From the NCBI GenBank assembly GCA_049274945.1, contig JBASTP010000005.1:3178-67177 (forward strand): a DNA stretch of 64,000 nucleotides, written 5' to 3'. Position 1 is the first letter of the stretch; every line of letters starts with the position of its first letter. Under the pieces are notes generated by a model that worked only from the letters and a program-made list of their open reading frames with translations, made no database searches and had not been told where the DNA came from. The translations under genes were made by a program, and so were the position numbers. The stretch is from Patescibacteria group bacterium (GTDB taxonomy: Bacteria; Patescibacteriota; UBA1384; GWA2-35-9; JBASTP01). Positions 4,058 through 42,471 of the stretch are shown here, piece by piece.

Positions 4058-4522
4058 TTATCCTCTTATACCGCACGTAATCGCCACTGCCAGGGCATCG
4101 GCCGCGTCATCGGGCTTGGGGATGTGGTCGAGTTTCAAAAGCATCTTTACCATAGCTTGCACCTGCTCTTTATTGGCGCTCCCCGAGCTTGTTACCGTCT
4201 GTTTTACCTGGAGCGGGGTATATTCAAAAATAAGGGTGTGTGCCTGCGCTGCAGCTAACAGCGCCACACCCATGGCTTGCGATACGCGCATGGCGGTTTT
4301 TTGGTTGTTGTAAAAAAAGAGCTGTTCAAACCCAACACGATCGGGCTTTACTTTTTTGAGCAGCTTAGTAAGTTCTCGGTGGATTTCCTGGAGCCGCTCA
4401 GTGGCGCTACCGGCCTCAAGGCCAATGATGCCATAATCGAGCATGGTCATTGTACTGGCCTGAGTCTCGATTACCCCATAGCCTAAGCGCGTTGTACCAG
4501 GATCAATGCCTAATATCTTCAT
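4058..4522 (-). CDS. ruvC: Crossover junction endodeoxyribonuclease RuvC
   Basis: MKILGIDPGTTRLGYGVIE N-terminus carrying the RNase H-fold catalytic Asp. 154 aa. Confidence 0.9.
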   Translation of the reverse strand: MKILGIDPGTTRLGYGVIETQASTMTMLDYGIIGLEAGSATERLQEIHRELTKLLKKVKPDRVGFEQLFFYNNQKTAMRVSQAMGVALLAAAQAHTLIFEYTPLQVKQTVTSSGSANKEQVQAMVKMLLKLDHIPKPDDAADALAVAITCGIRG

Positions 4523-5218
4523 TTATCCAAGATTTGTGTACACTGCCGTCACATCATCCAGCTCATCAAGTATCTCAAGGAGTTGCGTTGCCTTTGGGTC
4601 GTTTGTTGAAACAGTACTTTTAGGCTCATATGAAACCTCGGCCGATTCAATGGTCGCCCCTGCCGCCTCGAGGGATTTTTTTACAGACTCAAGTTGCGTA
4701 GGCAAAGTGTACGCCATAACCTTCCCATCATGTTCTTCAACATCCAGCGCACCGGCATCGATTGCCGCAAGGCTCAAGGCCTCAGTATCGCCTTTTGCAC
4801 TAATCACCCCTTGCTCTTCGAAGAGATACCCCACCGAGCCAAATTCAGTAACCTTGCCGCCAAATTTGGTAACGGTTGAGCGCACTTCGTTCACCGTACG
4901 GTTTTTGTTATCGGTCACTGCCTCAATCACCATAGCAATCCCGCCCGGGCCAATGGCGCCGTAGCGCACTTCCTCAAGGCTGGCGCCGCCCAGTTCGCCC
5001 GTGCCCCGTTTAATCGCTCGTTCAATACTGTCTTTGGCCATGCCGGCGGCCCGCGCTTTATCAATCGAGAGCCGCAAGTTTGGATTCATGGCCGGATCGC
5101 CGCCACTCTTGGCGACAATCGAAATTTGGGCGGAAAGCTTAGTAAACGCTTTTGCCTTGCGGCCGTCGGTAATCGCCTTTTTATGCTTGATGGTCGACCA
5201 CTTGGAATGTCCTGACAT
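4523..5218 (-). CDS. yebC: YebC/PmpR-family DNA-binding regulator
   Basis: MSGHSKWSTIKHKKAITDGRKAKAFTKL... is the canonical YebC N-terminus. 231 aa, immediately upstream of ruvC as in many bacteria. Confidence 0.9.
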   Translation of the reverse strand: MSGHSKWSTIKHKKAITDGRKAKAFTKLSAQISIVAKSGGDPAMNPNLRLSIDKARAAGMAKDSIERAIKRGTGELGGASLEEVRYGAIGPGGIAMVIEAVTDNKNRTVNEVRSTVTKFGGKVTEFGSVGYLFEEQGVISAKGDTEALSLAAIDAGALDVEEHDGKVMAYTLPTQLESVKKSLEAAGATIESAEVSYEPKSTVSTNDPKATQLLEILDELDDVTAVYTNLG

Positions 5219-5259: not shown

Positions 5260-7107
5260 ATGAAACGCTACGCTATTGCAGCCGTCCTCATGGCCCTACT
5301 CTTAACCAACATAACGCACGCGGCAGACTTTGGGGTTGGCTCCTACATCAACTCGGCCGGATCAGATGTAAACCAACAGAAAGCCGCGGATTTACTGGGT
5401 GAAACCAACTCGGAATGGACACGCATGGAAGTAGTCTATGATCCGAACTATGACTTTTCATCAATTCAAAGTGCCACCTCCCGCGCCAAGGCCAAAGGTT
5501 CCAATGTGCTACTGCTTTTCGGCCATAAGAGCGGGTTAACGGCCGAGCAATTTGAATCGTTTGTTGATACCGCGGCCAACAAGCTCAAAGATAATGTGGA
5601 CGCCTACGAAATCTTCAACGAAATTGATAACACCCTGTCCGCCGGCGACTACAAACCGTTTTTGGAAAAAGCGCACGGCAAGATTAAGGCAATCGATGGT
5701 TCCGCGAGCGTCGTCACTTCCGGCTTGACCGCCCGCAAGGAAGCAATCAATTATTGGAACTCGCTCTACGATGCCGGTGGCGGCAGCTTCTTTGATAGCC
5801 TGGGTATTCACCCCTACCGAACCTCCTCGCCGGAAACCAAAGAATTCAATATTGGTACGCTGGTGGACTCACTCAATCAAGCAGCTGGGGCGATCAGCAA
5901 TCATGGCGGCGGTAAGAAAATTTGGATCACCGAGTTCGGCTGGAAATCGTCCGAGGTAGGGGACGGCACCCAGGGTAACTACTTGGCCCGTTCATTGATA
6001 CTCGCCGCGAGCGTGCCGAGCGTTGATAAAATTATCCAATACAAACTCTACGACAACGATGGCGGGTCCTACGGCATCGCCAAATCGGATTTTTCGAAAA
6101 AAGAATCGTTTAATACCGTTGCAACCGCAATCAGCAAACTTAAAGGCAAGGGCTTTTCTGAAACGGTGCGGGTGTCCTCTGCCAAAGTGATCGACAATTT
6201 TGATTCGGTGAGCGGCTGGAAGGATGACGGCTCGTCGAATGGCTCGGTAGCCCTCTCGGGCGCGTCGGGCCGAAGCGGCGGCGGTATGAAGTATGCCTGG
6301 AAGTTTAACGGTTCCGATACCTACGTGGTAGGGAGAAAACAAGTTGCCCTGGAAGGGGAACCAAAGGGACTGTCAGTGTGGTTAAACGGTGGCAGCGGTT
6401 CGAGCGTTTGGAAATTGAGGATGGTCGATAAAAACAACGAAACGTTCCAGTTTGATTTAGGCCAAGCTTCGAGCGGTTGGAAGCAGTACACGTTCGATTT
6501 TGCTAAGGACAAAGCTAAAACCAGCTGGAGCGGCAACGGCAACGTTGACTACCCGGTCAAATTTGATTCGATCGTGCTCGATAACCAAGGTGGTTCGAGC
6601 TCGGGTGAAATGCTGATCGACGATCTTGAGGCGCTCCACGGCGAAACGGACTTTTACGCGCTGCGGTTCGGCTCGCTCCTCGCCTACTGGAAACCTTCGG
6701 GGGGCGGGACGGCCACGGTGTGCGGCAAGTCACTCAACTTCGAGGTTTACCCGCAGTACACCGAGGTAAGTTCGTGCGAGCAGGTGGCAGCGAGTAACCA
6801 AGCGGCGGCCCCGGCCACAACCGCTAAACCAAAAGCCGCCCCCAAACCGCCCGAGCAAACTCCGACGCCTTCAGCGAGCCCCACCCCAACCCCCGAGCCG
6901 GAAAAACCCACCGCCGCACCAACCGAGACTCCAACGCCCGTGGTGACTGAGCAACCGATTGCCGCCCCACCGTTTTGGACTACGCAAAAAATTGGCGGTG
7001 CGGCGGCCGCTGCCGGACTCCTAGCTGCGCTCATTGCCTGGCTCTACAAACGTGGATGGTTTGCCCTGATGCTACGGCGTCTCAAAAAATCCAAGCCACG
7101 GCCTTGA
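5260..7107 (+). CDS. Secreted GH-A-clan glycoside hydrolase (GH5-like) with CBM-like domain, PT linker and C-terminal membrane anchor
   Basis: Signal peptide present. FNEIDN (acid/base Glu) and KIWITEFGW (nucleophile Glu) motifs of TIM-barrel GH-A hydrolases, then a beta-rich domain, a PT-rich linker and a hydrophobic C-terminal helix with a KRGW...RRLKKSKPRP tail. Confidence 0.7.
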   Translation: MKRYAIAAVLMALLLTNITHAADFGVGSYINSAGSDVNQQKAADLLGETNSEWTRMEVVYDPNYDFSSIQSATSRAKAKGSNVLLLFGHKSGLTAEQFESFVDTAANKLKDNVDAYEIFNEIDNTLSAGDYKPFLEKAHGKIKAIDGSASVVTSGLTARKEAINYWNSLYDAGGGSFFDSLGIHPYRTSSPETKEFNIGTLVDSLNQAAGAISNHGGGKKIWITEFGWKSSEVGDGTQGNYLARSLILAASVPSVDKIIQYKLYDNDGGSYGIAKSDFSKKESFNTVATAISKLKGKGFSETVRVSSAKVIDNFDSVSGWKDDGSSNGSVALSGASGRSGGGMKYAWKFNGSDTYVVGRKQVALEGEPKGLSVWLNGGSGSSVWKLRMVDKNNETFQFDLGQASSGWKQYTFDFAKDKAKTSWSGNGNVDYPVKFDSIVLDNQGGSSSGEMLIDDLEALHGETDFYALRFGSLLAYWKPSGGGTATVCGKSLNFEVYPQYTEVSSCEQVAASNQAAAPATTAKPKAAPKPPEQTPTPSASPTPTPEPEKPTAAPTETPTPVVTEQPIAAPPFWTTQKIGGAAAAAGLLAALIAWLYKRGWFALMLRRLKKSKPRP

Positions 7108-7132
7108 CTGGCCTGCCATTATTTGGTATAAT
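7104..7132 (+). promoter_or_regulatory. Sigma70-type promoter (TTGACT-17-TATAAT) for the proB leader
   Basis: TTGACT at 7104-7109 and TATAAT at 7127-7132 with a 17-nt spacer. The -35 overlaps the stop codon of the upstream gene. Confidence 0.55.
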
Positions 7133-7138
7133 AGTTGT

Positions 7139-7375
7139 ACAATTCGAAACATAGCAGGGGAAACCCGCCCCTGCATCCCGCGGAGCCCGAAAGGGCAAAG
7201 TGGGAATTGGCTGGTCGCAATTCCTTTAGACTTGTCCTGAGCGAAGTCGAAGGATAGTAAGACCAGACGGAGCTATCCGTAAAATAGCCAAACGAAGCCA
7301 TCCCGCCTACGGCGGGCAAGAAGTTGGGTGGTACCATCGCCTTAGGCGATCCCAACACGAGAGGGCTTTTTTTGA
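7139..7375 (+). promoter_or_regulatory. T-box-type riboswitch leader upstream of proB (candidate tRNA-Pro sensing)
   Basis: A highly structured ~235-nt leader. Contains AAGUUGGGUGGUACCAUCGCC, whose core GGGUGGUACC matches my recollection of the T-box consensus GGGUGGNACC. This sits as a 7-nt bulge (UGGUACC) between helices GUUGGG/CCCAAC and AUCGCC/GGCGAU, giving antiterminator-like geometry, and is followed by a GAGGGCUUUUUUU run. proBA operons are T-box regulated in Bacilli. Confidence 0.5.
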
Positions 7376-7422
7376 TGTCCTTGAACAATCCGGGGCATGG
7401 CAACACATGAAAGGAACACGGA

Positions 7423-8208
7423 ATGATCCAGACAGTTGGTCATAAACTTCGGATACTCGATCTTGCTCAGCACGATTGGATTGTAGTAAAAATCGGCACA
7501 TCAACCCTGGCGCCGGACGGTAAGATAGATACCGCATACCTCGATAATCTTGCTGGCCAAATTGCTAACATTAACCACGAACGGTGGCTCAAAACCATTC
7601 TCGTTACCTCAGGCGCAATACTGGCCGGACGGGACTTCATGCGGCTTAGTCAACTTTATCGGGTTGATGAGAAGCAAGCCGCTGCGGCGATAGGGCAGCC
7701 ATTACTCATGAAACTATACAGGGAAGCCTTTGCCTCCCACAATCATCACGTCGCGCAGGTGCTGTTAACTAAGGAAGATTGTCTTGACTCAATCCGAACC
7801 GATAATGTCCGGCAGATGTTCTTCCGACTCTTCTCATGGAACACTGTTCCGATTGTCAATGAGAATGATTCAGTGGCAACGGAAGAAATCGTCTTCGGCG
7901 ATAACGACTTGCTTGCCGCCCATGTGGCGGTAATGGCAAACTGCAAAGCCGTTTTCCTACTTACCGATGTTGACGGCTATCTTGATGGCCAAGGAGCGGT
8001 GGTGCCCTACCTGTTAAACATCACCGACGATATGATCAACCAAGCGAAGTTATTGCAATCAAACGGAACCGGTGGCATTGCCTCAAAACTTGCGGCAGGT
8101 CAAATTACCAGCCGTAACGAAATCCCCTTGATCATCGCCAACGGGCGAGAGCCTGATGTGCTCAATCGTATTGTTCAAGGAGCATCGATTGGCACACTCT
8201 GTTCCTAA
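7423..8208 (+). CDS. proB: Glutamate 5-kinase (no PUA domain)
   Basis: 261-aa product with an amino-acid-kinase fold (VVKIGTSTL, VTSGAI, ENDSVATEEIVFGDNDLLAA). RBS AAAGGAA upstream. Confidence 0.85.
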   Translation: MIQTVGHKLRILDLAQHDWIVVKIGTSTLAPDGKIDTAYLDNLAGQIANINHERWLKTILVTSGAILAGRDFMRLSQLYRVDEKQAAAAIGQPLLMKLYREAFASHNHHVAQVLLTKEDCLDSIRTDNVRQMFFRLFSWNTVPIVNENDSVATEEIVFGDNDLLAAHVAVMANCKAVFLLTDVDGYLDGQGAVVPYLLNITDDMINQAKLLQSNGTGGIASKLAAGQITSRNEIPLIIANGREPDVLNRIVQGASIGTLCS

Positions 8209-8339: not shown

Positions 8340-9251
8340 TTATCGCTCACTGTTCGTCCAGAACGTTTTCCCATCACTCACCACCTCCACGCGACCATCT
8401 TCATCAGTGCGGTAGATTTGGGCCTGCCATTGCCTCAGCCGTTTTAGCGTGCTAGGTACCGGGTGGCCGAACTGGTTGCCTTTGCCGACTGAGATGATTG
8501 CGAGCTTTGGGGTGGTGGCCTCAAGAAATGCTTCGGTGGTGGAAGTGTTCGAGCCGTGGTGGCCAACTTTGAGCACCTCGACATCAAGTTCGGGTGCATA
8601 GCGTTCCATGATCGCTTGCTCGTGGCGGGCTTCGGCATCGCCGGTAAGGAGGACATCGAACTCGTCGTAACTTGCTTTAGTAACCACCATCGCGTCGTGC
8701 TGCTCTTTCGGTGTTACCCCGTGGAACGATTCAGGAGGATAGTAAACCTTCAACTTCACATCGCCAAATTGCTTCTCGATGCCGGCATGCACCTCTACCA
8801 CCGCTGCGCCTTCCTTTTGCTCTTGCTCGATTGCCGCGCGCCACTTATCGAACGTATTCGTCGTATGAACTGCGCCGCTTACCCAAATTTCTTTAACGCG
8901 GTAGTTCGCCAACACATCGTCCAGCCCGCCAAGGTGATCCGAATGGTTGTGGGTGGCGATCACAAGGTCAATCTCTCGGTCTCTCAGCGGCATCACTTTA
9001 CCAAGTTCGCTCAATACTTGTTCGTTTGGCCCGCCGTCGATTAGCACATCGTGGCCCGACGGCAGCCGCATATAAATCGCATCACCCTGGCCAATGTCGA
9101 GCGCCCAGACATGGAGCAGCTGGTCAGGTGCCTGGACTGCTGAGGTCCAAATAACTATGCCAACGAGCGAAATAATCGCAAGGTAGGCCTGCCAGAGTTT
9201 ACGTTTGATGTGAGGCGGGATGTACATGGCGTTTCCAAAAATGCGAAACAA
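8340..9251 (-). CDS. comEC: ComEC C-terminal part (TM helix + metallo-beta-lactamase domain)
   Basis: LDIGQGDAIYMRL...IATHNHSDHLGGL MBL motifs typical of the ComEC/Rec2 C-terminus. Begins with TTG at 9251 immediately after an in-frame stop and overlaps the upstream ORF by 53 nt in another frame. Confidence 0.75.
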   Translation of the reverse strand: MFRIFGNAMYIPPHIKRKLWQAYLAIISLVGIVIWTSAVQAPDQLLHVWALDIGQGDAIYMRLPSGHDVLIDGGPNEQVLSELGKVMPLRDREIDLVIATHNHSDHLGGLDDVLANYRVKEIWVSGAVHTTNTFDKWRAAIEQEQKEGAAVVEVHAGIEKQFGDVKLKVYYPPESFHGVTPKEQHDAMVVTKASYDEFDVLLTGDAEARHEQAIMERYAPELDVEVLKVGHHGSNTSTTEAFLEATTPKLAIISVGKGNQFGHPVPSTLKRLRQWQAQIYRTDEDGRVEVVSDGKTFWTNSER

Positions 9252-10412: not shown

Positions 10413-10919
10413 ATGACCACCAAAAAACAACCTGCCCCGACTAGCGCGTCGGGGCCGGCCCCGACTGAGCTAGAAAACCTGCTTAAACGCCTGCAGGCGG
10501 ATTTTGATAACTACCGTAAGCGCATGGAACAGGAAAAGGTTCACACTATACAATCTGCGAACGCAAAATTACTATTGGATATTTTGCCAGTAGTTGATAA
10601 CTTCCGACGGGCAATTACCCACCGACCTGTCCCTCGAAGCCCCGGAGGCGAAGTGGAAAACTCTAGCGAAGGTGGGGGCCAGGACAATTGGTCGCAAGGA
10701 ATTCAGGCAATTGAACGGCAACTCGAAGATATCCTACAAAAGCATGGTCTCCAAGCGATCGAAGTTACTGTCGGCGACGAATTCAACCCCACCCTCCACG
10801 AAGCAATTGCCCACCAACCCTCGGGTGATCACCAACCCAACTCGATCATCAAAATTGTAGAAAACGGCTACCAGCTTAGCGGCAAAGTGTTGCGCCCCGC
10901 CAAAGTAGTAGTCAGCTAA
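10413..10919 (+). CDS. grpE: Nucleotide exchange factor GrpE
   Basis: ORF 10362-10919 trimmed to the ATG at 10413 (MTTKKQPAPTS...) so it does not overlap the comEC start. Carries the GrpE coiled-coil and C-terminal beta-domain (LQADFDNYRKRMEQE...VENGYQLSGKVLRPAKVVV). Confidence 0.85.
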   Translation: MTTKKQPAPTSASGPAPTELENLLKRLQADFDNYRKRMEQEKVHTIQSANAKLLLDILPVVDNFRRAITHRPVPRSPGGEVENSSEGGGQDNWSQGIQAIERQLEDILQKHGLQAIEVTVGDEFNPTLHEAIAHQPSGDHQPNSIIKIVENGYQLSGKVLRPAKVVVS

Positions 10920-12061
10920 CCGACTAGTTTTTTAAATACGTGCACATACTGGGCCGCTACCCGATCCCAAGAATACCGTTTTAGAGCGTATTGGTAACTG
11001 GCCTGGCCCATCCTGGATGCAAGCCGATCGTTTTTCAGGATGATTGAAATGCGCTCAGCCAATTGTTTTGGGTCGGCTGGAGGCACTACATAACCAAATT
11101 TGCCATCAAACCCGCGGGCATCGGGAAATACGGTAGTAATGACGGCCGGCTTACTAAACCCTTGGGCAAGTTTCAAGATACCTGATTGAGAAACAAACAA
11201 ATACGGTAACGCTACTACATCAGACGCTTTCATAATCGGTTCGATGTGTTTGGTTGGCACGTAACGTAATATCACTTTGAGATGGCCTCTCAACTGCTGT
11301 ACCTTTGATGAATTAAGATAGCGTGGGAGCGATTCAGCATACTTGGTTGAGGAAACAACCAATAAATATGCTTCCGGCACTTGCTCGAGAATCATAGGAA
11401 AAGCACGCACGAGATGCTGGAGACCCTTGTAATGCCGCAGGAATCCGAAAAACAGCACAATTTTAGCTTGTTTGGGTAACCGCAAAAGCCGGCGTGCTTT
11501 TGTCTGATCGTACCGTTTGAAATTAAACAAATTATAGATACCGTGCTCGGATACCGTAATCTTCGATCTGGGATAGTCAAAAAAACGTTGGAGACGGGCT
11601 GCTTCTTTCTCATTACCAACGAAAATACCTGAAGCGAGCCGGTACATTGACCGGAGGACTTCGCTGCCGCCAGCGAATTGTTCCTGAGAGATGACATCAT
11701 GTACGGTGAGCACCACTGGGATACCAAGGTCTTTTAACACTGATAAAAGCGACAAGAAAAACAGTGCGCCCGAGCGGGCAGTTGTGCCAAGGTGAATATT
11801 CACAAGATCAAATCGCCCCCGTCGTAGAAAATGTATTAGGTCACGCAAACTGCTAAGTGATTCGGGATCCATCAAAAATCGGGCAGTCGTGATCTCACGT
11901 TCCATCAAAATATCTTTTTCTGCAAAGACAATTCCTTCGGGAGTACGCTTCTTTCTATAGCTGATGTACTGCAAGGTAACTTGCTTGGCGAGCGGCCCAA
12001 AGAGGTGGGCGGCGTAGTGCCCAAGACCACCACCGGACGAAGAAATAATTGCGACTTTCAT
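10916..12061 (-). CDS. Glycosyltransferase family 4 (GT-B fold)
   Basis: 381 aa. Has the C-terminal GT1/GT4 donor-binding region (FFGFLRHYKGLQHLV...EAYLLVVS..., the EX7E-like segment). Confidence 0.8.
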   Translation of the reverse strand: MKVAIISSSGGGLGHYAAHLFGPLAKQVTLQYISYRKKRTPEGIVFAEKDILMEREITTARFLMDPESLSSLRDLIHFLRRGRFDLVNIHLGTTARSGALFFLSLLSVLKDLGIPVVLTVHDVISQEQFAGGSEVLRSMYRLASGIFVGNEKEAARLQRFFDYPRSKITVSEHGIYNLFNFKRYDQTKARRLLRLPKQAKIVLFFGFLRHYKGLQHLVRAFPMILEQVPEAYLLVVSSTKYAESLPRYLNSSKVQQLRGHLKVILRYVPTKHIEPIMKASDVVALPYLFVSQSGILKLAQGFSKPAVITTVFPDARGFDGKFGYVVPPADPKQLAERISIILKNDRLASRMGQASYQYALKRYSWDRVAAQYVHVFKKLVG

Positions 12062-16862: not shown

Positions 16863-18104
16863 TCAGTACTTTGCGATGATTTCCTGAGTCGCCTTCCACC
16901 AAGCATCGTTGCCCTGGTGTTTGCAGGCGATCTGGAACTCGAGGCCCCACAGGAAAATCTTCTCGGGTTTCAGGGCAATCGCCCGCGGGAACGTTTCGAG
17001 GTAGCGTGTGGGATTGAATGAAACATTGCCGTTGGGATTTTTGAAATCCATCTTTTGGGCTCCCTCCCACGGCTCGGCCTGCCACTCGGTAATCCACACT
17101 CGCTTGCCCTGCCCACGGGCGTGATCCATCCAGCGGCTAATCAACCGCCAGTGCTCCGGCTGCGTTTCCCACTTGTTACTTTTAACGTAGCAGTCGAAAC
17201 CAAGAATGTCGCCAAGTGGTACCATTTGCCGCGTAACGACTGGCGACCACCCTTGGGCAAGATCTGGCGATACATCTACCGCCGTCCAAGTCGTCGCAAG
17301 GATCGGGCGCTTCTTGAGATCAAGGCTTCTCGCTAGCGCAATCTCGCGCCGAACCTGGCTTAGGGCCATGGGTCTCGTGAAGGTCAGCGGCTCGTTCTCA
17401 ATCTGCCAAGCCACCACCACAGTGCGATCGCGATAGCGCTTGATTCCTTCGGTTAGGTAGTGGGCAATTGCCGCGCGAGCTTTCGGAGTTGCGGCCATCA
17501 CAGTTTTTGATTGCTCGATCGTGGCGTTAACAGTTTTCAATATTGCCGCTGCAGCCGGATCCTTATTGGCTTGTTCCTTGAGTTTAGCAAGTTCCTGTTT
17601 GGCCTTGTCGGGAACTTGGATTTGAAGTGCATCGCTCGGGACCGGCGGTTTGATCCGTTTTTCAACCTCTGCCTTGATCCACGTCGGTGGATGGTATTCT
17701 GGGTAGCGCGGACTCTTCGCCCCAAAGCACAATACCACCTCAACCGCCGCTTGCTCGCAAATCTGCAAAGCCTCGTCGAGCTCGCGCCAGTTGAACTTAC
17801 CTTGCGCCGGCTCAACCAAATCCCAGGGCATTGACAGCCGAATAGTCGAGACGCCCGAGTTGGCAATCTCTTTGAGTGAATCCTGCCAGGGCGGACCAAT
17901 GGCCTGATTATTGCCAAGCGGCCCGCCCCAGCTGCCATTAAGCCACATGGCGTGGCTGATGGTAAAACTCGCGCCGATACGTATGTGTTGCAGAGCCGAC
18001 ACCCGTATTTGTAAGTTCTCTGCCTTGGCTCTGTTGACCGATTCCTGACCATTGGGCAGTAATAACGAACCGCCGCTGGCGATCAAAAATTCTCGTCGTG
18101 TCAA
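16863..18104 (-). CDS. Tat-signal glycoside hydrolase, GH-A clan (GH5/GH42-like TIM barrel)
   Basis: MTRREFLIASGG twin-arginine signal. VVAWQIENEP (acid/base) and RVWITEWQAEP (nucleophile) motifs. Confidence 0.65.
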   Translation of the reverse strand: MTRREFLIASGGSLLLPNGQESVNRAKAENLQIRVSALQHIRIGASFTISHAMWLNGSWGGPLGNNQAIGPPWQDSLKEIANSGVSTIRLSMPWDLVEPAQGKFNWRELDEALQICEQAAVEVVLCFGAKSPRYPEYHPPTWIKAEVEKRIKPPVPSDALQIQVPDKAKQELAKLKEQANKDPAAAAILKTVNATIEQSKTVMAATPKARAAIAHYLTEGIKRYRDRTVVVAWQIENEPLTFTRPMALSQVRREIALARSLDLKKRPILATTWTAVDVSPDLAQGWSPVVTRQMVPLGDILGFDCYVKSNKWETQPEHWRLISRWMDHARGQGKRVWITEWQAEPWEGAQKMDFKNPNGNVSFNPTRYLETFPRAIALKPEKIFLWGLEFQIACKHQGNDAWWKATQEIIAKY

Positions 18105-18296
18105 AGAGTATCACCTCTTCAGGAGAGATAACGCAAAAAATGCGCAAGTAAATACTAGCACAAGGTAACCGAAGAGTCAATGAACATCCCTTGACTTTTC
18201 AGAAAAAATCTGGCAAAATACACTCTATCTGGCTCAGGTGGCTTTTTTGTTTTTAGGGCCATTTGGGCTCGAAATCTTAACAACAGGAGTTGGTTC

Positions 18297-18884
18297 ATGA
18301 CCCATGCCGTTGCTGTACCTACCAGCCACAGGATCGACCAGAACGGAGGTGTGAACGGGATCGACCCCGGCGAGTTCGTTCTGGAGAGTGCCTTCCCACC
18401 CGAGATCTTCCGGTGGGAGCCCATCACCAAGGATGTGCTTTCGCGCGACCAGGTGGTTTCGCAAAGGGTTGCGGTCCATTGCGGATCGCTCGGCCAGAAC
18501 GTGATCAACCAGCTCGGCGTGGTTGTGGACTTGCTGAACGGTCACGAACACCCGGTCGGTCGGATCTACTGGTGCCCCATGGCACCGCTCGATCCGCTCG
18601 CGAGCTATCGGGCATGCTGCTTCGCCCACCACATGGCGTTGCTCAGCAAAGAAGCGCTGGGGCACTGCTATGGCGCGGGCCGCGGCATCGGAAGATCGAA
18701 CGGCAGCGCCGACGAGATGGACCTCATCCACGCGCGCTGGGTCGCGACGGCCATCGGCTACCTCAAGTACCGCGCGGTGATGGACCTCGAGGTCCCCAAC
18801 TTGCCAATCATCGCCAAACGGTACGCGGAGGGAGGGCTCGTGCTCGATCTTTCCAGCGCCGAGCGCCAGGCCCTGCATCAGTAA
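18297..18884 (+). CDS. Hypothetical Cys/His-rich protein, high-GC island (probable HGT)
   Basis: 195-aa ORF with an AGGAG RBS 9 nt upstream and a downstream terminator. GC is about 62% and GC3 about 85%, against a ~50% background. The overlapping antisense and out-of-frame ORFs have R/A/V-rich artefact composition. Confidence 0.5.
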   Translation: MTHAVAVPTSHRIDQNGGVNGIDPGEFVLESAFPPEIFRWEPITKDVLSRDQVVSQRVAVHCGSLGQNVINQLGVVVDLLNGHEHPVGRIYWCPMAPLDPLASYRACCFAHHMALLSKEALGHCYGAGRGIGRSNGSADEMDLIHARWVATAIGYLKYRAVMDLEVPNLPIIAKRYAEGGLVLDLSSAERQALHQ

Positions 18885-18912
18885 GAACACGCCCCATCAG
18901 AAATCCACACAC

Positions 18913-18950
18913 GGGAGCCCCGAGCAAAGTCGAGGGGCTCCCTCTTTTTT
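18913..18950 (+). terminator. Rho-independent terminator
   Basis: GGGAGCCCC...GGGGCTCCC 9-bp stem followed by TCTTTTTT. Confidence 0.7.
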
Positions 18951-19030
18951 ACCCAAAATCCATTGACCCGCCGCCAACTTTTTGGTATCGTTATAGGTTG
19001 CACATCACAACCGGAAAGGCAGGAAATGTC

Positions 19031-19570
19031 ATGCGATCACAGCCACACCCAATCGACAGTGTATTACTGCTCGGACTTCTCGTTGTTGTTAGCATATCCA
19101 CTTGGTCGGTTTCCAAACAGAATAACCCCGAGAACGCAACCCTTTCACACCTGCGCGAGGCAGGATCGATCAAGATCGTCGTCTACGATCCCCACCAGGA
19201 ATACCACCGAAACCCATCTGCCGAGTGCCCAGACCGGCATTTCAGAGGCTACATCCCCAGGATCAGGGGAATCAAAGCGGTGCTCACCGTTTCTCAGATA
19301 GCTTCTCGAGGTGACGAAACCGTAGTACGGGAACAAGCTAAAAAGTGGGCATGGCGCCAAGAGACTGAGTTGCGTAACGAACATCTGATCATTCAACCTA
19401 TCGCCATCAAACAACTCACCCCAGGGACCTATCGCGCCCGGCTCACGGTGGAAAAAAACGGCGAGAAAATTAGCCTTTCGGGCAAAACCCTCCTCACCAT
19501 CCCCGATCAAGACAAAACACCCGCTCCCTTAAAACCTCCCCGCCGCACGCCCGTGCGGCGGTTTTTATGA
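19031..19570 (+). CDS. Hypothetical membrane-anchored protein
   Basis: C-terminal part of track ORF 18290-19570, restarted at the ATG at 19031 with an AGGAAA RBS. N-terminal TM helix (VLLLGLLVVVSISTW). The upstream part of the long ORF is Arg-rich out-of-frame noise. Confidence 0.5.
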   Translation: MRSQPHPIDSVLLLGLLVVVSISTWSVSKQNNPENATLSHLREAGSIKIVVYDPHQEYHRNPSAECPDRHFRGYIPRIRGIKAVLTVSQIASRGDETVVREQAKKWAWRQETELRNEHLIIQPIAIKQLTPGTYRARLTVEKNGEKISLSGKTLLTIPDQDKTPAPLKPPRRTPVRRFL

Positions 19571-24386: not shown

Positions 24387-24681
24387 GGGCCTGTAGCTCA
24401 GTGGTAGAGCAATTGCCTTCAACTTAGGAGCCTCAAGAAGGAAACGAACTTTTTGAGTGGATATCGCTATATGCTGGAACACCCCGCACCTTTTCATGAA
24501 AAGGTGCGGGACAATCAGCAGGGAAGTGCTTCGACTTCGCTCAGCACCCCTCAGAGACTATACGCGGTACACCTGCGATGGTGAAGAGATAGTCCAGCCT
24601 ACAACCACTTTTAGTGAGGCCACGGTAACGTGGAGTAGGATGTTAAGCAATGTGTCGCGGGTTCGATCCCCGCCAGGCCCT
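24387..24681 (+). tRNA. tRNA-Lys(UUU) interrupted by a group I intron in the anticodon loop (exons 24387-24419 and 24643-24681)
   Basis: Acceptor GGGCCTG/CAGGCCC, D-arm GCTCAGTGGTAGAGC, anticodon stem ATTGC/GCAAT, T-arm GCGGGTTCGATCCCCGC. The 5' anticodon-stem strand is followed by CTT and the 3' strand is preceded by TTAA. The only junction with a 5'-exon U and an intron-terminal G gives loop CTTTTAA (anticodon UUU), with the intron between positions 34 and 35. Confidence 0.7.
24420..24642 (+). ncRNA. Group I self-splicing intron (223 nt, no ORF) within tRNA-Lys
   Basis: CAGAGACTATA at 24551-24561 and GAAGAGATAGTCC at 24583-24595 match, from memory, the group I intron R and S core elements (Tetrahymena GUUCACAGACUAAA and AAGAUAUAGUCGG). 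A long P5/P6-like hairpin CCCGCACCTTTTC-ATG-AAAAGGTGCGGG, a P9-like hairpin with GTAA tetraloop, and a 3'-terminal G are also present. Confidence 0.7.
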
Positions 24682-26173: not shown

Positions 26174-27028
26174 TCAACGGTTTATAACACTCTCATAGCA
26201 ATCTACCAGGTGTTGGTAGCTGCGAGTAGCAATGACATCGGCACCCGGTGAAAAATCAAACGCCTCAACCGAGACGCACCCTCGATAGCCGATCTCGATC
26301 AGCGCGGCGAAGACTTCGGTAAAGTCAATGCCGTTTTCTGCCATGCCGGGGCCCTGCATATTGAGATCGTTCAGGTGGACGTGGTGGAGTATCGGTGCAT
26401 GCCTGCGAATCAGCCAACCCCGTGAACATTGCTCGCTGCGCATACTATAGCAGTCGAGGATAATCCTCACGGGATGCCCGGCGAGTTCCTCGAGATTATC
26501 GGCAAATGCCGCTGCCTCCTCAGCCGTCGTTAGAAAATTGGTCTGATCGGGACTGAGCGGCTCAATGCACAACATAACACCAAGGTCAGCACCAACGCGG
26601 ACCGCCTGTTTCAAGGTGTGGAGCGAAAGCGTCCGCGCCCGGTCGGGCTCAACATCTGGCTTGATTGAGCGCTGCTGGGGCGATCCAAACACCATAGTAT
26701 CGCCTCCGATATCGTGGCAAAACCGGACAAGCTCCACCAGATATCCACTCGTCCTGTCTCTCACAGCCTTATCAGGATCGGAGATGTGCATCCCCTCTGT
26801 GTCCTTGAGCAGCCAGTGGAGGCCGACTATCTTAAGCTTGCTAACCTCCGCAGCAAGCCTGATCTGATTGCGCCGAGCATCAGAGATTTCAGTGACATCC
26901 TTCGAGATGATAAATGGCGCGATCTCTATGGCATCGTAGCCAAACATTTTGGCTTCAACGAATACATCTTCGATTGGGCGATTGCCCCAGAGTTCGTTGC
27001 AGATAGCAAACCTGAACGATCGTGGCAT
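26174..27028 (-). CDS. Sugar phosphate isomerase/epimerase (xylose-isomerase-like TIM barrel)
   Basis: 284 aa. AP-endonuclease-2/xylose-isomerase-like TIM-barrel motifs (GYDAIEI, HVHLND, LCIEPL). Confidence 0.7.
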   Translation of the reverse strand: MPRSFRFAICNELWGNRPIEDVFVEAKMFGYDAIEIAPFIISKDVTEISDARRNQIRLAAEVSKLKIVGLHWLLKDTEGMHISDPDKAVRDRTSGYLVELVRFCHDIGGDTMVFGSPQQRSIKPDVEPDRARTLSLHTLKQAVRVGADLGVMLCIEPLSPDQTNFLTTAEEAAAFADNLEELAGHPVRIILDCYSMRSEQCSRGWLIRRHAPILHHVHLNDLNMQGPGMAENGIDFTEVFAALIEIGYRGCVSVEAFDFSPGADVIATRSYQHLVDCYESVINR

Positions 27029-31492: not shown

Positions 31493-32323
31493 ATGCGACT
31501 GATAAGCGCCCTTGCGCTACTGAGTGTAGTCTCTCTCGGTGCGCGCCAATCGCCCAAGGCTCCCGTTCCTAAAACCAAGCGCCCAGTGGCGGTAATCGCT
31601 CACCGCGGCGGCATGGGAGAAGCCCCGGAAAATACCAAAGCAGCCATCGAAAACGCCATCAAGCGTAGGGTGGACTGGGCAGAAGTTGATGTGCGCTATG
31701 CCAGTGACGGCACGCTCATCCTCCTCCACGATAACAATTTACAAAGAACAACCGGGGAGATAGGGACGGTCAGTGAAATGCCCTATCAAGAATTGCGCAA
31801 GTTTAACATTCCCACCTTCCGCGAAATCCTTGAGCTCTGCCGCGGCAAGTGCAATGTCTATATCCATTACAAAGATGGTGATGCGCGGGCCATTTGGCAG
31901 GAAATACGCGATACCAAGATGACCAAGCAGGTTATGGTCTATATTCCGTTGAAAGACGTTGCTTACTGGCGCAAAATCGCCCCATTACTGCCCCTTATGG
32001 TGCGGCTGCCCGAGGCATTCCGCGCTCCGGAAAAAATCAAAGAATTTGCCAGGCAGTACCCGATTTCAGCCATCGAAGGCCCAACCTGCAATAGCTACTC
32101 AAAGGAGCTGATCGACGCGGCGCATGGCTGCGGACTCAAGGTATTTCTCGATTGCCTGGGGTCGGCCGAACTGCCTCCATTCCTGAAAAGACTCAACGAT
32201 GCCCTGGATTCACCAGAGACCTACCAGCAGGCAATCGAACGCGGCGCCGACGCCATCCAGACCGACTACCCCCAGCGCCTGCTCGATTACCTCAAAACCC
32301 ATAATCCCTCGGCGGTGAAATAA
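31493..32323 (+). CDS. Glycerophosphodiester phosphodiesterase (GDPD family), secreted
   Basis: Signal peptide, then VAVIAHRGGMGEAPENT (the HRGG motif of GDPD) and EVDVRYASDGTLILLHD. Confidence 0.8.
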   Translation: MRLISALALLSVVSLGARQSPKAPVPKTKRPVAVIAHRGGMGEAPENTKAAIENAIKRRVDWAEVDVRYASDGTLILLHDNNLQRTTGEIGTVSEMPYQELRKFNIPTFREILELCRGKCNVYIHYKDGDARAIWQEIRDTKMTKQVMVYIPLKDVAYWRKIAPLLPLMVRLPEAFRAPEKIKEFARQYPISAIEGPTCNSYSKELIDAAHGCGLKVFLDCLGSAELPPFLKRLNDALDSPETYQQAIERGADAIQTDYPQRLLDYLKTHNPSAVK

Positions 32324-32378: not shown

Positions 32379-33263
32379 TTGCGCAGTTTGACAACCGAAT
32401 CTACTGGAACGGAGAGTGTCATGGAAAGAAACTTCTTACAGCTGTTGAAAGGACGATGGCCCGATTCCTGCGCCTGCGTGGGGCTCGACAGTGACTACAG
32501 AAAGCTACCGGCCTCCCTGAAAGAAAAAGGATTGTCGGTCCACGATACCTTGTTGGCATTCAATGGGGCGATCGTGAACCGTACGCACGACCTTGTTTGC
32601 GCCTACAAATTACAGTCATCATTCTACGAGGCAGAGGGTCCGGAAGGCATCGCTGCAATGGTCGAAACAGTCAAGTTCATCAACGACAACTTTCCCGATA
32701 TCGCGGTCATCAGTGATGCAAAACGCGCCGACATCGGCAACACGAATGATGGCTATGTCTCTGCAACGTTCGACCGCTACAATTTCGATGCCATGACCCT
32801 GCATCCGTACCTGGGAATCGGCGCCTTGAAGCCATTCCTCTCCCGCATTGAAAAAGGATGTATCATCTTGTGCCGAACGTCGAATGATGAAGCACGAGAA
32901 TTCCAGGACCTCATCGTTCAACGCGGCGAAACCGAGATGCCCTTGTGGCAATATGTTGCCCATCAAGTCACGGAAGAGTGGAATACTAACGACAACTGCT
33001 GCATGGTCGCGGGCGCGACATATCCGGGAGAATTGGCGAAAATCCGCGAGATCGCCGGCGACATGCCCTTGCTTATTCCCGGTATCGGCGCCCAAGGCGG
33101 CGACATCGAGGCAACGGTGAAAGCCGGCAAAAACAGCCAGGGCGCGGGGATGATCATCAACAACTCCCGCGGGATCACATTCGCATCCGATGGTCCGGAT
33201 TTTGCCGAAGTCGCTCGCGCGAAGACGATCGAGTTCCGCGACGCGATCAACCTATATCGTTAG
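32379..33263 (+). CDS. pyrF: Orotidine 5'-phosphate decarboxylase (type 2, about 290 aa)
   Basis: Length and motifs (VGLDSD..., DAKRADIGNT, GIGAQGG) fit the long-form ODCase. Confidence 0.8.
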   Translation: MRSLTTESTGTESVMERNFLQLLKGRWPDSCACVGLDSDYRKLPASLKEKGLSVHDTLLAFNGAIVNRTHDLVCAYKLQSSFYEAEGPEGIAAMVETVKFINDNFPDIAVISDAKRADIGNTNDGYVSATFDRYNFDAMTLHPYLGIGALKPFLSRIEKGCIILCRTSNDEAREFQDLIVQRGETEMPLWQYVAHQVTEEWNTNDNCCMVAGATYPGELAKIREIAGDMPLLIPGIGAQGGDIEATVKAGKNSQGAGMIINNSRGITFASDGPDFAEVARAKTIEFRDAINLYR

Positions 33264-33314
33264 ACCGCGTAAATCTCGACAATCTGCAAACGCTAGAACG
33301 AAAGAAGGTGAGAA

Positions 33315-33999
33315 AATGGAGTTTACAGGAATTCAACGAGAGATTGCACTGCTCATCTTCGCAGGCGGTGGCATTGAATTTGGTGATTTCAAACTCAAAA
33401 TGCACGAAGAGCATCCCGATGCTCCCCTGTCACCGATTTACATCAACCTGCGGGGGAAACCGAAGGGCAATTTCAGCGCCAAAACCTTGGCAGCGCTCGG
33501 ACACTATCTGGCTGATCACGCGGTGCCCCACGGCATCACTGATTTCAGGTGTGTCGTCGGATTGCCTAAGGCCGGAGAACCCTTAGCCGACGGGTTTGCA
33601 GAATCGTTCACAACCGAATATAAGAAACTGCGACTCGAAAAGGAGGAGGGCAACAACAAGCGTAAAATCGCACCAGTCGTACGCGGCGACTTCAAGCAAG
33701 ACGAAAATGTCCTGATGATCGATGACTTGATCACCAAGGCAGATACAAAACTCGAAGGTGCGCAGGCGCTCCGTGATAACGGTTTGGTCGTCACGGATTG
33801 TCTGGTCTTGGTTGACCGCGAGAAGGGGGGGGAGACCGAACTCGCGAAAGCAGGAATCAATCTCCACGCCGTGATTACGTTGACGCAGCTTCTCGACTTT
33901 TACGTCGGAGTTGGTCTGATCGACGAAGCAACCAAGGAATGTGTCGTGAACTACCGTCAAGCCGTCGAGGACTACTTCGCGAACCAGAAAGGACAATAA
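33315..33999 (+). CDS. pyrE: Orotate phosphoribosyltransferase
   Basis: Trimmed to MEFTGIQREIAL with a GAAGGTGAG RBS. PRPP motif VLMIDDLITKADTK. Follows pyrF. Confidence 0.8.
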
Positions 34000-35331: not shown

Positions 35332-37056
35332 TTATGATCGCTTAAGTACGTTCAAAAATACATCGGTTGGAATTTCAACGCGGCCGAATTGCCGCATTCG
35401 TTTTTTGCCTTTTTTCTGTTTATCGAGTAATTTATTTTTTCGCGTAACATCGCCGCCATACAATTTAGCCGTCACATCTTTGCGCAGCGGCGAAATCCTT
35501 TCGCTGGCAATGATTTTACTGCCGACTGCCGCCTGGATTTTAATCTCAAAGTTCTGGCGGGGAATCAATTCTTTGAGCCGGGTAACGAGTCTGCGGGCAA
35601 TGCTGTTCACCTTGCTGCCATGAATCAACTGTGAGAACGGCTCCATTTTTTCCTCGGCCACAAGCACATCGAGCGGCACTAAATCCGATTCGCGGTAGTC
35701 GATCAGCTCGTAATCCATGGTGGCGTAGCCGCTAGAAACGCTTTTGAGCTCGTCATAAAAATCAATAATGATCTCGCCCAGCGGCGCCTCGCCTTCAATC
35801 ACCAGAGACTCGGAAATTGTATTGTTTGTTAATACCATCCCGCGGTGGCGGTTGATGAGTTCTAAAATCGAGCCGAGATAATCTGGTGGTGTGACAATTT
35901 CCAGTCGGACAAAAGGTTCTTCCCAATCATTTTGAGATTTGAGATTTGAGATTTGAGATTTTTTACGGTAGGCAACCTGTGGCGTGGTAACTACAAGCTC
36001 AAGTCCAAACTCCCGTTCGAGCCGCTGCTTCACGATATCGAGGTGGAGCAGGCCCAAGCAGCCGAGCTTGAACCCCGGGCCGAACGCCTTAGACTCCGCG
36101 GGCTCAAACTGAAACGCGGCGTCGTTCAAGCGAAGTTTGTCGAGCGCTTTGCGCAGGAGTGGGGTGTCGGCGGATGAGACCGGGAAAACGCTTGCGTACA
36201 CCATTGGTTTCGGTTCTCGAAACCCCGCGATTGGTTCGGTGTTTTGAATTTCTGCCACCGTGTCTCCCACCCGGGCCTCGGTCAGCGATTTGAGATCAGT
36301 CACCACGTAGCCGATCTCGCCCTGAGCCAGGGCAAGGGCTCCCCGACGTTCCGGATGGAAGTAACCAACCTCGAGCACGCGCGCGGTGGCGCCGGTGGCC
36401 ATGAAGTTAAGGGTGGCACCTTTGGCAAGTCCGCCATCGAACACCCGCACATAAACAATTACGCCGCGGTGTTCGTCGTATAACGAATCGAACACCAGCG
36501 CCTTGAATGCGTTGTGTTCGTCGTCGGTTGGCGCGGGGATATCATGAATAATCCGGTCTATGAGCTCGGTAACACCTTCGCCGGTTTTGGCAGAAATTTT
36601 GAGCGGCACTCGGCCGGTGAGGGCTTGGAGGGCGGCTTGTGCTGAGGCAATATCGGCCGAAGGGAGATCAATCTTGTTGATTGCGGGAATGATGGTAAGG
36701 CCAGCGGCTTGCGCTAACCGAAAATTGGAAAGGGTTTGGGCTTGGATGCCTTTGGTGGCATCGACCAGGAGCACTGCGCCTTCGACACAGGAAAGCGCGC
36801 GGGAAACTTCGTAGGTAAAATCAACGTGGCCGGGAGTATCAATCAGATTCAGGATGTAGCCATGCCACAGCATCCGCACTGGCGCCATTTTGATAGTGAT
36901 GCCGCGCTCGCGCTCGAGCTCCATTGAATCGAGCATCTGTGGTTTTATCTTTTCTTTAGGGACCGTGCCAGTGAGCTCAATTAACCGATCGGCCAGGGTG
37001 GACTTGCCGTGGTCGATGTGGGAAATGATCACAAAGTTGCGAATTTGATTTAGCAT
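35332..37056 (-). CDS. lepA: Elongation factor 4 (LepA)
   Basis: NFVIISHIDHGKSTLADR, DTPGHVDF and a LepA-specific C-terminal domain. 574 aa. Confidence 0.95.
   Translation of the reverse strand: MLNQIRNFVIISHIDHGKSTLADRLIELTGTVPKEKIKPQMLDSMELERERGITIKMAPVRMLWHGYILNLIDTPGHVDFTYEVSRALSCVEGAVLLVDATKGIQAQTLSNFRLAQAAGLTIIPAINKIDLPSADIASAQAALQALTGRVPLKISAKTGEGVTELIDRIIHDIPAPTDDEHNAFKALVFDSLYDEHRGVIVYVRVFDGGLAKGATLNFMATGATARVLEVGYFHPERRGALALAQGEIGYVVTDLKSLTEARVGDTVAEIQNTEPIAGFREPKPMVYASVFPVSSADTPLLRKALDKLRLNDAAFQFEPAESKAFGPGFKLGCLGLLHLDIVKQRLEREFGLELVVTTPQVAYRKKSQISNLKSQNDWEEPFVRLEIVTPPDYLGSILELINRHRGMVLTNNTISESLVIEGEAPLGEIIIDFYDELKSVSSGYATMDYELIDYRESDLVPLDVLVAEEKMEPFSQLIHGSKVNSIARRLVTRLKELIPRQNFEIKIQAAVGSKIIASERISPLRKDVTAKLYGGDVTRKNKLLDKQKKGKKRMRQFGRVEIPTDVFLNVLKRS
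35931..35958 (+). repeat. Tandem heptamer (TTTGAGA)x4 inside the lepA coding sequence
   Basis: Four perfect 7-bp units followed by TTTTTT. Encodes ...KKSQISNLKSQND... in LepA. The unit length is not a multiple of 3. Confidence 0.6.
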
Positions 37057-41970: not shown

Positions 41971-42450
41971 TTAAGATTTTGGCGGGTGAAAACCGAGTTC
42001 TTGGTCTGAAAAGCGCACTTGCGAGCCCAGTTGGTTAGTGCGGGGATCTCGGCGAAAGCGAGCTTGCTGGAAGCGCTTCGCTAGTTGCTCGAGTAGTTGC
42101 CCAAAAGACCCTGAGAGCAGCCGCTCGAAAAGATTTAATTCAGAGCTCGTTCGTTGCCAGAGTACCTGATGGACACGACCCTGACGAGCCGGGCCATCAA
42201 ATGTTGCAAACCAGTTTAAACAAATCCTGCCGGCAACTGCCTGACCATGCCGCCGCACACCGAGCAGTTGAATAACGGTGGTAACAAAAAACCGCGTAAA
42301 ATAGAGTCTGCCCGGCCTGACTTGGATAAAAAAATCGATGTCCGATCCTTTATGTTGCCGGCCTTCGGCAAGCGATCCAGTCAAACTCACCCGTTCGACG
42401 AATGGCAACTTTCCGATAATCCGCGCGTAGTGTTTGGCTTTTTCGATCAT
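41971..42450 (-). CDS. Nucleotidyltransferase-domain protein (minimal NTase fold)
   Basis: GSLAEGRQHKGSDIDFFI matches GSx9-13Dx(D/E). The C-terminal half is of doubtful coding quality and runs into the GC-rich repeat. Confidence 0.45.
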   Translation of the reverse strand: MIEKAKHYARIIGKLPFVERVSLTGSLAEGRQHKGSDIDFFIQVRPGRLYFTRFFVTTVIQLLGVRRHGQAVAGRICLNWFATFDGPARQGRVHQVLWQRTSSELNLFERLLSGSFGQLLEQLAKRFQQARFRRDPRTNQLGSQVRFSDQELGFHPPKS

Positions 42451-42471
42451 CGTGTACTACAATGGTACAAC

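Follow-up and report, generated by a model that had tools for sequence, protein, structure and literature searches.

A probable divergent T-box leader in front of a glutamate 5-kinase gene in a Patescibacteria group bacterium

T-boxes, the standard example of a structured RNA that reads another structured RNA, have mostly been described in Firmicutes, Actinobacteria and a small number of further phyla. Here we analyze a candidate T-box leader in front of a proB gene in a Patescibacteria group bacterium, within a stretch of 64,000 nucleotides (nt) of contig JBASTP010000005.1 (assembly GCA_049274945.1) that is called the window throughout. A sigma-70-type promoter (TTGACT-17-TATAAT, 7104-7132, + strand), with 11 of 12 consensus matches and an extended TG, is the sole promoter-like site between 6900 and 7600, and transcription would accordingly begin near 7139. 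The leader that follows (7139-7375, 237 nt) has a folding energy of -97.2 kcal/mol, compared with -72.2 +/- 5.1 kcal/mol for dinucleotide shuffles (z = -4.9), and none of 200 shuffles folds as stably. Downstream, on the same strand, lie the Shine-Dalgarno (SD) sequence AAAGGAA (7410-7416) and proB (7423-8208), which encodes a glutamate 5-kinase of 261 amino acids without a PUA domain; the open reading frame (ORF) matches AA_kinase in Pfam, scores 211 bits with TIGR01027 (cutoff 186) and carries the glutamate-5-kinase signature NENDxV...GDND. The NCBI protein identical to this ProB is named from ‘Patescibacteria group bacterium’, and close homologues of the genes neighbouring proB are named Candidatus Berkelbacteria. 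The original prediction for this locus had placed a consensus promoter, a hairpin-dense leader of about 235 nt and proB in this arrangement, and had read the leader as a T-box in which a UGGU lies in a 7-nt bulge between two 6-base-pair (bp) helices, followed by a U-run; promoter, leader, gene, bulge and U-run were all recovered as described.

The discriminator core of the leader (7323-7356, + strand, as are all leader features below) consists of helix A1 (GUUGGG, 7323-7328, with CCCAAC, 7351-7356), the 7-nt bulge UGGUACC (7329-7335) and helix A2 (AUCGCC-UUA-GGCGAU, 7336-7350), both helices being 6 bp long. The motif AAGTTGGGTGGTACCATCGCC (= AAGUUGGGUGGUACCAUCGCC) lies at 7321-7341, and the T-box consensus AGGGUGGNACCGCG, with its A1, 7-nt bulge (UGGN-ACC) and A2, finds its counterpart in UUGGGUGGUACCAUCG at 7324-7339. 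A tail of GAGGGC and seven uridines (U7, 7367-7373) occupies 7361-7373; within it GGCUUUUUUU (7364-7373) is a candidate terminator or switch strand whose GGCUUU pairs with a GAAGCC upstream of the discriminator.

The 5′ part of the decoding domain (7140-7209) forms a three-way junction in which P1 (CAAUU, 7140-7144, with AAUUG, 7205-7209) encloses two hairpins. Hairpin 1 (7154-7174, GCAGGGG/CCCCUGC) is the equivalent of a short Stem I and presents a 7-nt apical loop, AAACCCG (7161-7167), while hairpin 2 (7177-7204, CCCGC-GGA-GCCC-GAAA-GGGC-AAA-GUGGG), capped by GAAA and interrupted by a 3x3 internal loop of purines, serves the junction as an accessory arm. Stem II (7211-7266) is built from a base helix CUGGUC/GACCAG, an internal loop GCAAUU (7217-7222)/AUAGUAA (7254-7260) and a variable distal hairpin. 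It is followed by the Stem IIA/B pseudoknot (7267-7288, ACGGA-GCUA-UCCGU-AAAA-UAGC), in which ACGGA/UCCGU forms IIA and the loop GCUA (7272-7275) pairs with UAGC (7285-7288) to form IIB. The purine linker AAACGAAGCCAU (7290-7301) comes next; its AAAYG fits the RRRxG motif described in PMC7583486, and its GAAGCC (7294-7299) is the 5′ strand of the helix that closes the discriminator. When the defining T-box features are taken from PMC7583486 and PMC11297988, the parts of the leader match the decoding module one for one (short Stem I with apical loop, S-turn Stem II, IIA/B pseudoknot) and likewise the discriminator (RRRxG purines, A1, UGGN-ACC bulge, A2). The S-turn, the pseudoknot and the purine string had not been seen in the original prediction, and their presence supports its T-box call.

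Homologous leaders were collected from Berkelbacteria-like contigs, giving five distinct leaders (L011, L015, L016, L019, L020) and a fragment (L001), so that six full leaders, the window copy included, could be compared. A search with the window ProB protein returned one close relative (77% identity), encoded on a Logan contig, L001, whose sequence begins within the leader; the remaining matches reached at most 49% identity. A pattern scan of JGI metagenomes with GACGGAGC..CCGTAA..GGGTGGTACC produced one full-length homologue, L011, and tracing the convergent neighbour (ComEC metallo-beta-lactamase domain, 8340-9251) produced L015, L016 (from the Berkelbacteria assembly GCA_016196985.1), L017, whose leader is identical to that of L011, L019 and L020. 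All leader copies share the same syntenic position. Another scan, of genome contigs with GTTGGGTGGTACC...CCCAACAC, hit five loci and no relative, three of the five being Deinococcota ileS-type T-boxes. The promoter TTGACT-17-TATAAT is kept in L011, L015 and L016; L019 and L020 show TTGACA and, at -10, weaker hexamers (TATATT, TAAATT). On all homologues R1, a covariance model built from the shared core, scores 140-155 bits; it found no leader in L018 or L021 and, whether filters were applied or not, just the one copy in the window, with no T-box at the class I aminoacyl-tRNA synthetase gene (42247-43440).

The leaders fall into two subtypes, the window type (window, L015, L011, L016) and the L019/L020 type. 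Among the six full leaders, compensatory double changes occur at 20 of 64 pair positions and one-sided changes at 4, and 3 of 316 cells are non-canonical. In a helix-only alignment, which was built by hand and is therefore biased towards the proposed structure, 99.2% of cells pair and both-sided changes are seen in 10 pairs; shuffled controls give 5.2 +/- 1.4 (0 of 500 reach 10) and slid partners at most 3. Covariation is found in hairpin 1 (between subtypes), hairpin 2, the base of Stem II, A2, a hairpin inserted in the A2 loop and one IIB pair. Hairpin 1 is unchanged in all four window-type leaders and is replaced in L019/L020 by a 7-bp GGUAGGG/YCCUACC with three compensatory pairs and the cap AACCG. 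Hairpin 2 shows five compensatory pairs relative to L016, with the internal loop variants GGA/AAA, GAA/GAA and GAG/AAG; the AAA of this loop was considered as a specifier and rejected, since it changes to GAA or AAG while the rest stays constant. The L019/L020 type has no hairpin 2 and carries a textbook K-turn, CRC-GUU-GA...GA-GYG with a covarying C-stem, which runs straight into hairpin 1. In its place stands the three-way junction of the window type, with the extra helix inserted on the would-be non-bulged strand, an arrangement that recalls ‘k-junctions’. In P1, a single U-A pair turns into U-G, and one pair is disrupted (L011). In A2, four of six pairs change compensatorily; the A2 loop of L016 and L019 carries an additional hairpin that covaries in turn; and one IIB pair passes from G-C to A-U in L020 (GCUA/UAGC to ACUA/UAGU).

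Other parts of the leader hardly vary. Helix A1, IIA, the bulge UGGUACC and the closing helix show no variation in the six leaders; AAAYGAAGCCA is kept in all six, with Y (C or U) as its sole variable base; and GGCUUUUUUU is invariant in seven of seven sequences, separated from CCCAAC by 5-8 variable nt. The bulge, A1, AGUAA (AAUAA in L020) and the apical AACC stay fixed while the stems that flank them change, as would be expected if the fixed elements were contact surfaces. A Stem III-like hairpin, CCCGCC-UAC-GGCGGG (7302-7316), followed by CAAGAA, occurs in the window and L011 only. The element is thus a conserved, covarying structured RNA.

Database comparison points to the same family. Searched at Rfam gathering thresholds, the whole window yields no T-box, only a tRNA-Met and a group I intron. 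With E-value reporting, the T-box family RF00230 is the best of 4227 Rfam families for 7050-7480: model positions 1-219 align to 7135-7357, scoring 25.2 bits (E = 9.7e-4 locally and 0.14 window-wide), and no second T-box match appears in the 64-kb window in this mode. The alignment places AGUA on the Stem II S-turn, above the covarying base helix (L020 has AAUA there), ACGGAGCUAUCCGU on Stem IIA and the F-box, with the IIB pairing also falling on the IIA/F-box part of the model, CCCGCC-UAC-GGCGGG on Stem III and AAGUUGGGUGGUACC on the T-box sequence. A focused search with the divergent L020 again ranks RF00230 first, at 30.0 bits over the full length (E = 4.7e-5), and places the K-turn, S-turn, F-box, RRRxG (AAAYG on the model's AGuG) and T-box sequence, with distal Stem I and Stem III deleted. 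About 70 Stem I positions are deleted in both alignments, and the distal Stem I platform, an AG bulge and distal loop whose interdigitated T-loops bind the tRNA elbow, is absent from both. Rfam evidence for membership hinges on the search filters. As a calibration, we used a Deinococcota leader found by the pattern scan, L003:3378-3650(-), a canonical-looking T-box with K-turn, distal Stem I, pseudoknot, clean terminator and an ileS-like ORF; a batch Rfam search missed it, and a focused search recovered it only as fragments of 21.2 and 15.2 bits. RF00230 is a poor detector of GC-rich T-boxes outside Firmicutes, and a low score neither excludes nor proves membership. Together with L005 and L006, which the batch search likewise missed, L003 belongs to the Deinococcota ileS-type T-boxes with clear canonical features.

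The original prediction had leaned on a 10-mer, GGGTGGNACC (= GGGUGGNACC), as a perfect match to the T-box core. It is present at its site, yet by itself it is not beyond chance: the window holds a second exact copy at 36411, inside the span of ORF 35332-37056 (-), and 13 matches with at most one mismatch against 11.8 expected. What makes the leader non-random is the full-length alignment to the T-box model, together with the fold z-score and the conservation and covariation among homologues. We consider it very probable that 7139-7375 is a genuine T-box-family leader.

The genes behind the leader differ from copy to copy. It is followed by proB in the window, by a 124-amino-acid ORF and then an overlapping proB in L001, and by a 46-amino-acid remnant of a small-protein family, here called family X, and then a divergent proB-like kinase in L020. 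One small ORF follows in L015, L011/L017 and L019, and two in L016. L018 has two small ORFs at the syntenic position, on a contig that stops before any leader could show. BLAST links and alignment unite the small ORFs (78-130 amino acids) in the one divergent family X, with the motif G.Y..PF.T.R...KRA..L (L001:57-431; L015:1567-1875(-); L016:4765-5157(-) and 4436-4672(-); L017:1785-2051(-); L018:4422-4748(-) and 4738-5088(-); L019:4511-4831(-); L020:5271-5411(-)), and comparison with Pfam, NCBIfam and PDB sequences gave no match. Family X precedes proB in L001 and L020 and has been lost from the window copy. The glutamate 5-kinases behind the two subtypes (window 7423-8208 and L020:4461-5267(-)) are 33% identical, against 60% for the neighbouring metallo-beta-lactamase gene, and the window enzyme is closer (47-49%) to those of bacteria outside the candidate phyla radiation (CPR); these sequences suggest gene replacement, or independent or repeated recruitment of a kinase behind the same leader. 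Neither proA nor proC was found among ten window ORFs checked with Pfam (2092-2919, 10916-12061, 16863-18104, 18290-19570, 26174-27028, 31493-32323, 33190-33999, 37132-37983, 42247-43440, 57752-59119), and, judged by the window, the kinase has no partner genes of its pathway.

In seven of seven copies a promoter-like site lies directly upstream of the leader and a same-strand ORF with its own SD begins 26-73 nt after U7. No separate promoter consensus was noticed between U7 and the downstream ORF in these copies, where no scan was run. Because a same-strand ORF with an SD follows every copy, the leader probably acts in cis and not as a stand-alone small RNA. The latter reading, in which a T-box-derived or T-box-like RNA would end constitutively at U7 without regulating the downstream gene, could draw on the leader's own strong promoter, on the position of U7 after a long hairpin and on the change of downstream gene (proB, family X or both). 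We regard it as highly improbable: besides the same-strand ORF with an SD that lies within 26-73 nt of every copy, the hairpin against U7 is weak at its base, and the downstream ORFs all come from two gene families, so that the association is conserved.

The preferred reading, to which we assign a probability of roughly 0.6, sees in this element a divergent T-box leader: a 5′ mRNA region that would act in cis, binding a specific uncharged tRNA and turning on the downstream gene. The anticodon of tRNA-Pro would pair with CCC or CCG in the apical loop of hairpin 1, and the 3′ ACCA end of the tRNA with UGGU at 7329-7332.

We propose that the apical loop (7161-7167) is the specifier loop, a location documented for short Stem I T-boxes (PMC7583486). 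Its sequence is AAACCCG in the window type and AACCG in L019/L020, or GAACCGY if the closing G-Y pair opens. AAC, ACC and CCG are common to every loop, and CCC followed by G is confined to the window type, where it obeys the rule of C in the third position and then a purine. Among the amino acids that these codons offer, only proline fits a glutamate 5-kinase. Since this leader family precedes two glutamate-5-kinase genes that share only 33% identity, proline is the likeliest specifier, with odds we judge a little better than even. The bulge UGGU would imply an A73 discriminator base in the cognate tRNA, which fits bacterial tRNA-Pro and many tRNA-Thr; tRNA-Asn usually has G73, a mismatch to UGGU. 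The proline sensing of the original prediction is thus plausible in that CCC and CCG do lie in the loop of a short Stem I; the long Stem I is absent, and ACC (Thr), which overlaps these codons, holds the structurally expected position.

Threonine read through ACC is accordingly a tentative second choice, and the wider alternative, a T-box relative that senses another tRNA through ACC or an overlapping AAC/ACC pair and whose genes answer to that amino acid, seems unlikely overall. There is a model for it in the two-codon Asn/Thr T-box of Clostridium acetobutylicum, which has overlapping AAC/ACC. No loop stretch other than AACC stays the same in both subtypes, ACC takes loop positions 3-5 in both and is followed by a purine in L019/L020, and it satisfies the third-position C rule and is the commonest Thr codon here (49%), although codon usage does not discriminate between the Pro and Thr specifiers. 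Against another tRNA speak the identity of the downstream enzyme, a glutamate 5-kinase by signature and by TIGR01027, the recruitment of two divergent copies of that enzyme behind the leader family, the presence of CCG in every loop, the canonical CCC-then-G of the window type and, for asparagine, the G73 mismatch.

How binding of tRNA-Pro would be turned into expression of proB is the least certain step of the preferred reading. The closing helix GAAGCC (7294-7299)/GGCUUU (7364-7369) appears in the minimum-free-energy fold of six of six discriminator segments; it lies between an A-rich tract (5′) and U7 (3′), and it is the only invariant partner of the U7 strand. Without uncharged tRNA, GGCUUUUUUU would pair with GAAGCC and close the discriminator as a long hairpin against U7, causing termination. 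With uncharged tRNA bound, the purine strand AAACGAAG would be drawn into the tRNA/bulge duplex's minor groove, a step modelled on the RRRxG string in solved T-boxes, the closing helix would not form and transcription would read through into proB. The long-range helix AAGCC/GGCUU may substitute for Stem III.

As the original prediction had remarked, there is no clean terminator: a canonical one formed from the A1/A2 3′ strands and ending at U7 was sought and found neither in the window nor in any homologue. Hairpin and U-tract terminators are used elsewhere in this genome. In L019 and L020 a partial copy of the T-box 5′ strand (GUUGG), which the window lacks, lies just after U7 and is able to pair with CCAAC, and this would come closer to classical A1 competition. 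Alternative pairings of the closing-helix 3′ strand come within about 1-6 kcal/mol, namely GAGGGC with GUCCUU in the window type and, in L020, L019 and L011, the U-tract with the SD region, which is rich in purines.

These alternatives make room for translational control by the same T-box, in which GGCUUUUUUU or, in the window type, UCCUU (7378-7382) would mask the SD without tRNA, while in the ON state the tRNA-stabilised discriminator and the closing helix, as a split Stem III, would hold the U-rich strand off the SD. UCCUU is complementary to both GAGGG (7361-7365) and the proB SD and is able to pair with the SD in five of five window-type copies, although it is absent in L019/L020; L020 has a predicted 12-13-bp helix GCUUUUUUUGGUU/AAUCGAAAGGAGC of -12.4 kcal/mol, with weaker versions in L019 and L011, and L020 is the only copy in which pairing of the U-rich strand with the SD is strong. 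Little energy separates the two states, the strand AAAYGAAGCC is similar in sequence to the SD region, there is no canonical terminator, and in Actinobacteria T-boxes with a short Stem I and a specifier in the apical loop make up the translational class (PMC7583486). Set against this, the masking helix is weak in the window (-6.7 vs -11.8 kcal/mol for the closing helix), the SD is a variable 26-73 nt away, and a U7 tract conserved without exception would sooner be expected of a terminator than of an anti-SD strand. Translational control is the less likely of the two; neither has covariation support, and it is the exact invariance of U7 that makes us lean slightly towards attenuation.

The 3′ platform between leader and SD (7375-7410) is variable. 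It contains a possible 11-codon upstream ORF (AUG at 7375, GUG in L011); a conserved upstream ORF (MSLNN...) acting as the switch was rejected, as it is confined to the window subtype, changes AUG to GUG in L011 and is absent from L019/L020. The first ~12 nt of the leader (UUGxACAAUYCG.GAAA) recur as a direct repeat just after U7 (CUUGAACAAUCC; window 7139-7150 and 7381-7392), also at the equivalent positions of L011, L015, L016, L019 (CUUGACAAUCGGAAA and CUUGAACAAGUGGAAA) and L020, and both copies change in step between relatives. The repeat could be a duplication scar or reflect a shared binding or pairing partner. Long-range pairing of the leader 5′ end with U7, with one compensatory and one broken pair, was unconvincing and was set aside.

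Several observations weigh against the preferred reading. At the level of family assignment, the 25.2 bits of the window lie far under the RF00230 gathering threshold of 93, which tempers the match to the family named in the original prediction, and a batch Rfam search of L011, L015, L016 and L019 gave no T-box match at E <= 1. Structurally, the window copy shows neither a recognisable K-turn nor convincing tandem G-A pairs; the candidate for the latter, a GA that precedes AUUG in the window type, is UA in L016. Stem III, described as indispensable (PMC7583486), is missing in four of the six full leaders (L015, L016, L019, L020). A G-U wobble at the bulge-proximal end of A2 is the steric sensor of the aminoacyl group (PMC7583486), and the pair at this place is A-U in the window, G-C in L015, L011, L016 and L019, and C-G in L020.

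The same holds for decoding and output. ACC occupies positions 3-5 of the 7-nt loop in both subtypes, with a purine after it in L019/L020, and, judged from residue numbers, this appears to be the seat of the codon in the ileS T-box of Nocardia farcinica, in which C14 is apical and A19 is the purine 3′ of the codon (PMC7583486). CCG breaks the usual rule of third-position C then purine, the invariant loop letters are only AACC, so the specifier is ambiguous, and neither the window nor any retrieved homologue locus holds a tRNA-Pro or tRNA-Thr gene. The most frequent partner of the leader is family X, with proB added in some lineages. In the window, no helix that involves the CCCAAC strand stops at U7 or overlaps the SD; lacking any variation, the closing helix has no covariation support; and with only three G-C pairs beside U7 at its base and no competition with A1, it leaves the termination model unprecedented and speculative.

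The surroundings of the cassette offer some further observations. The ORF upstream of the leader (5260-7107, 615 amino acids) has no Pfam match; its homologues carry Big_1/invasin-type domains, its own product has a linker rich in Pro and Thr and a hydrophobic anchor at the C terminus, and is probably a surface protein. In L007 the upstream gene is 96% identical, yet leader and proB are missing and an ordinary terminator and a convergent gene stand in their place (L007:2480-2665); the leader-proB cassette is therefore variable among near relatives. L011/L017 have an unrelated 277-amino-acid ORF in place of the 615-amino-acid gene, and the yebC-comEC interval is a hotspot of gene turnover. An FMN riboswitch (RF00050, 85.8 bits) follows a homologue of the surface-protein gene at L010:5817-5964, and a similar-looking intergenic leader without an Rfam match at the gathering threshold lies at L009:3440-3620; both loci were rejected as homologues of the present leader, a different leader occupying the site. 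Elsewhere in the window, the group I intron (53 bits, 46716-47004(-)) lies just upstream of a tRNA-like 3′ half (46650-46715(-)) with the T-arm GUGGGUUCAAAUCCCAC and a possible CAU anticodon, which together may be an intron-split tRNA gene; an intact tRNA-Met is about 120 nt from the intron, and a second, sub-threshold group I match (40.6 bits) lies at 24409-24615(+).

In the literature searched, we found no publication on T-boxes in Patescibacteria or the CPR. An ultra-small, auxotroph-like bacterium would here be investing in sensing tRNA charge for an apparently orphan glutamate 5-kinase and for family X, a link that makes the function of both directly testable. The contact sites are kept while elements held to be ‘essential’ are lost or replaced (the K-turn in one subtype, Stem III mostly, the G-U sensor), which amounts to a natural experiment on the minimal T-box. 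A bolder and rather doubtful extension is that these leaders form an undescribed CPR lineage of T-boxes with a rebuilt switch, in which a long-range helix stands in for Stem III, A1 is never remodelled and GAAGCC is either captured by tRNA or paired with GGCU7. If this were true, the regulon would comprise a new small-protein family and an orphan glutamate 5-kinase, and would suggest that organisms believed to synthesise hardly any amino acids have a proline-linked function so far overlooked.

Compared with known systems, the leader stands apart from the Firmicutes-centred consensus of RF00230 in that about 70 nt of Stem I are gone, Stem III is missing or optional and the scores are 25-30 bits against 93, whereas the order of blocks is the same: the GA motif (L019/L020), AGUA, the ACGG...CCGU F-box, AAAYG, and AAxUUGGGUGGUACC with its 7-nt bulge. 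In Bacillus, proBA and proI are under T-box control through a CCU specifier (Brill et al. 2011, cited in PMC3858371), as the original prediction had stated for proBA in Bacilli. These T-boxes resemble the present one in preceding the first gene of proline synthesis and, given the codon proposed here, in reading proline; they are class I elements with a long Stem I, a side-bulge CCU and a clear terminator/antiterminator, whereas the present leader has CCC/CCG in an apical loop, no adjacent proA and a non-canonical expression platform. The translational ileS class of Actinobacteria (PMC7583486) shares with it a short Stem I without the elbow-binding double T-loop, a specifier (here a proposed one) in the apical loop, an S-turn Stem II with a compact IIA/B pseudoknot, insertions in A2 (here in L016 and L019) and the lack of a canonical terminator. 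Unlike that class, the present leaders come from Patescibacteria and precede a glutamate 5-kinase and family X instead of ileS; the window copy has a three-way junction for the K-turn, Stem III is mostly absent and the G-U sensor is not kept; and no SD-masking helix arises from the A1 3′ strand, its place being taken by the invariant closing helix and U7. In architecture the leader follows the short Stem I design of Actinobacteria, with additional losses and an expression platform that is not canonical.

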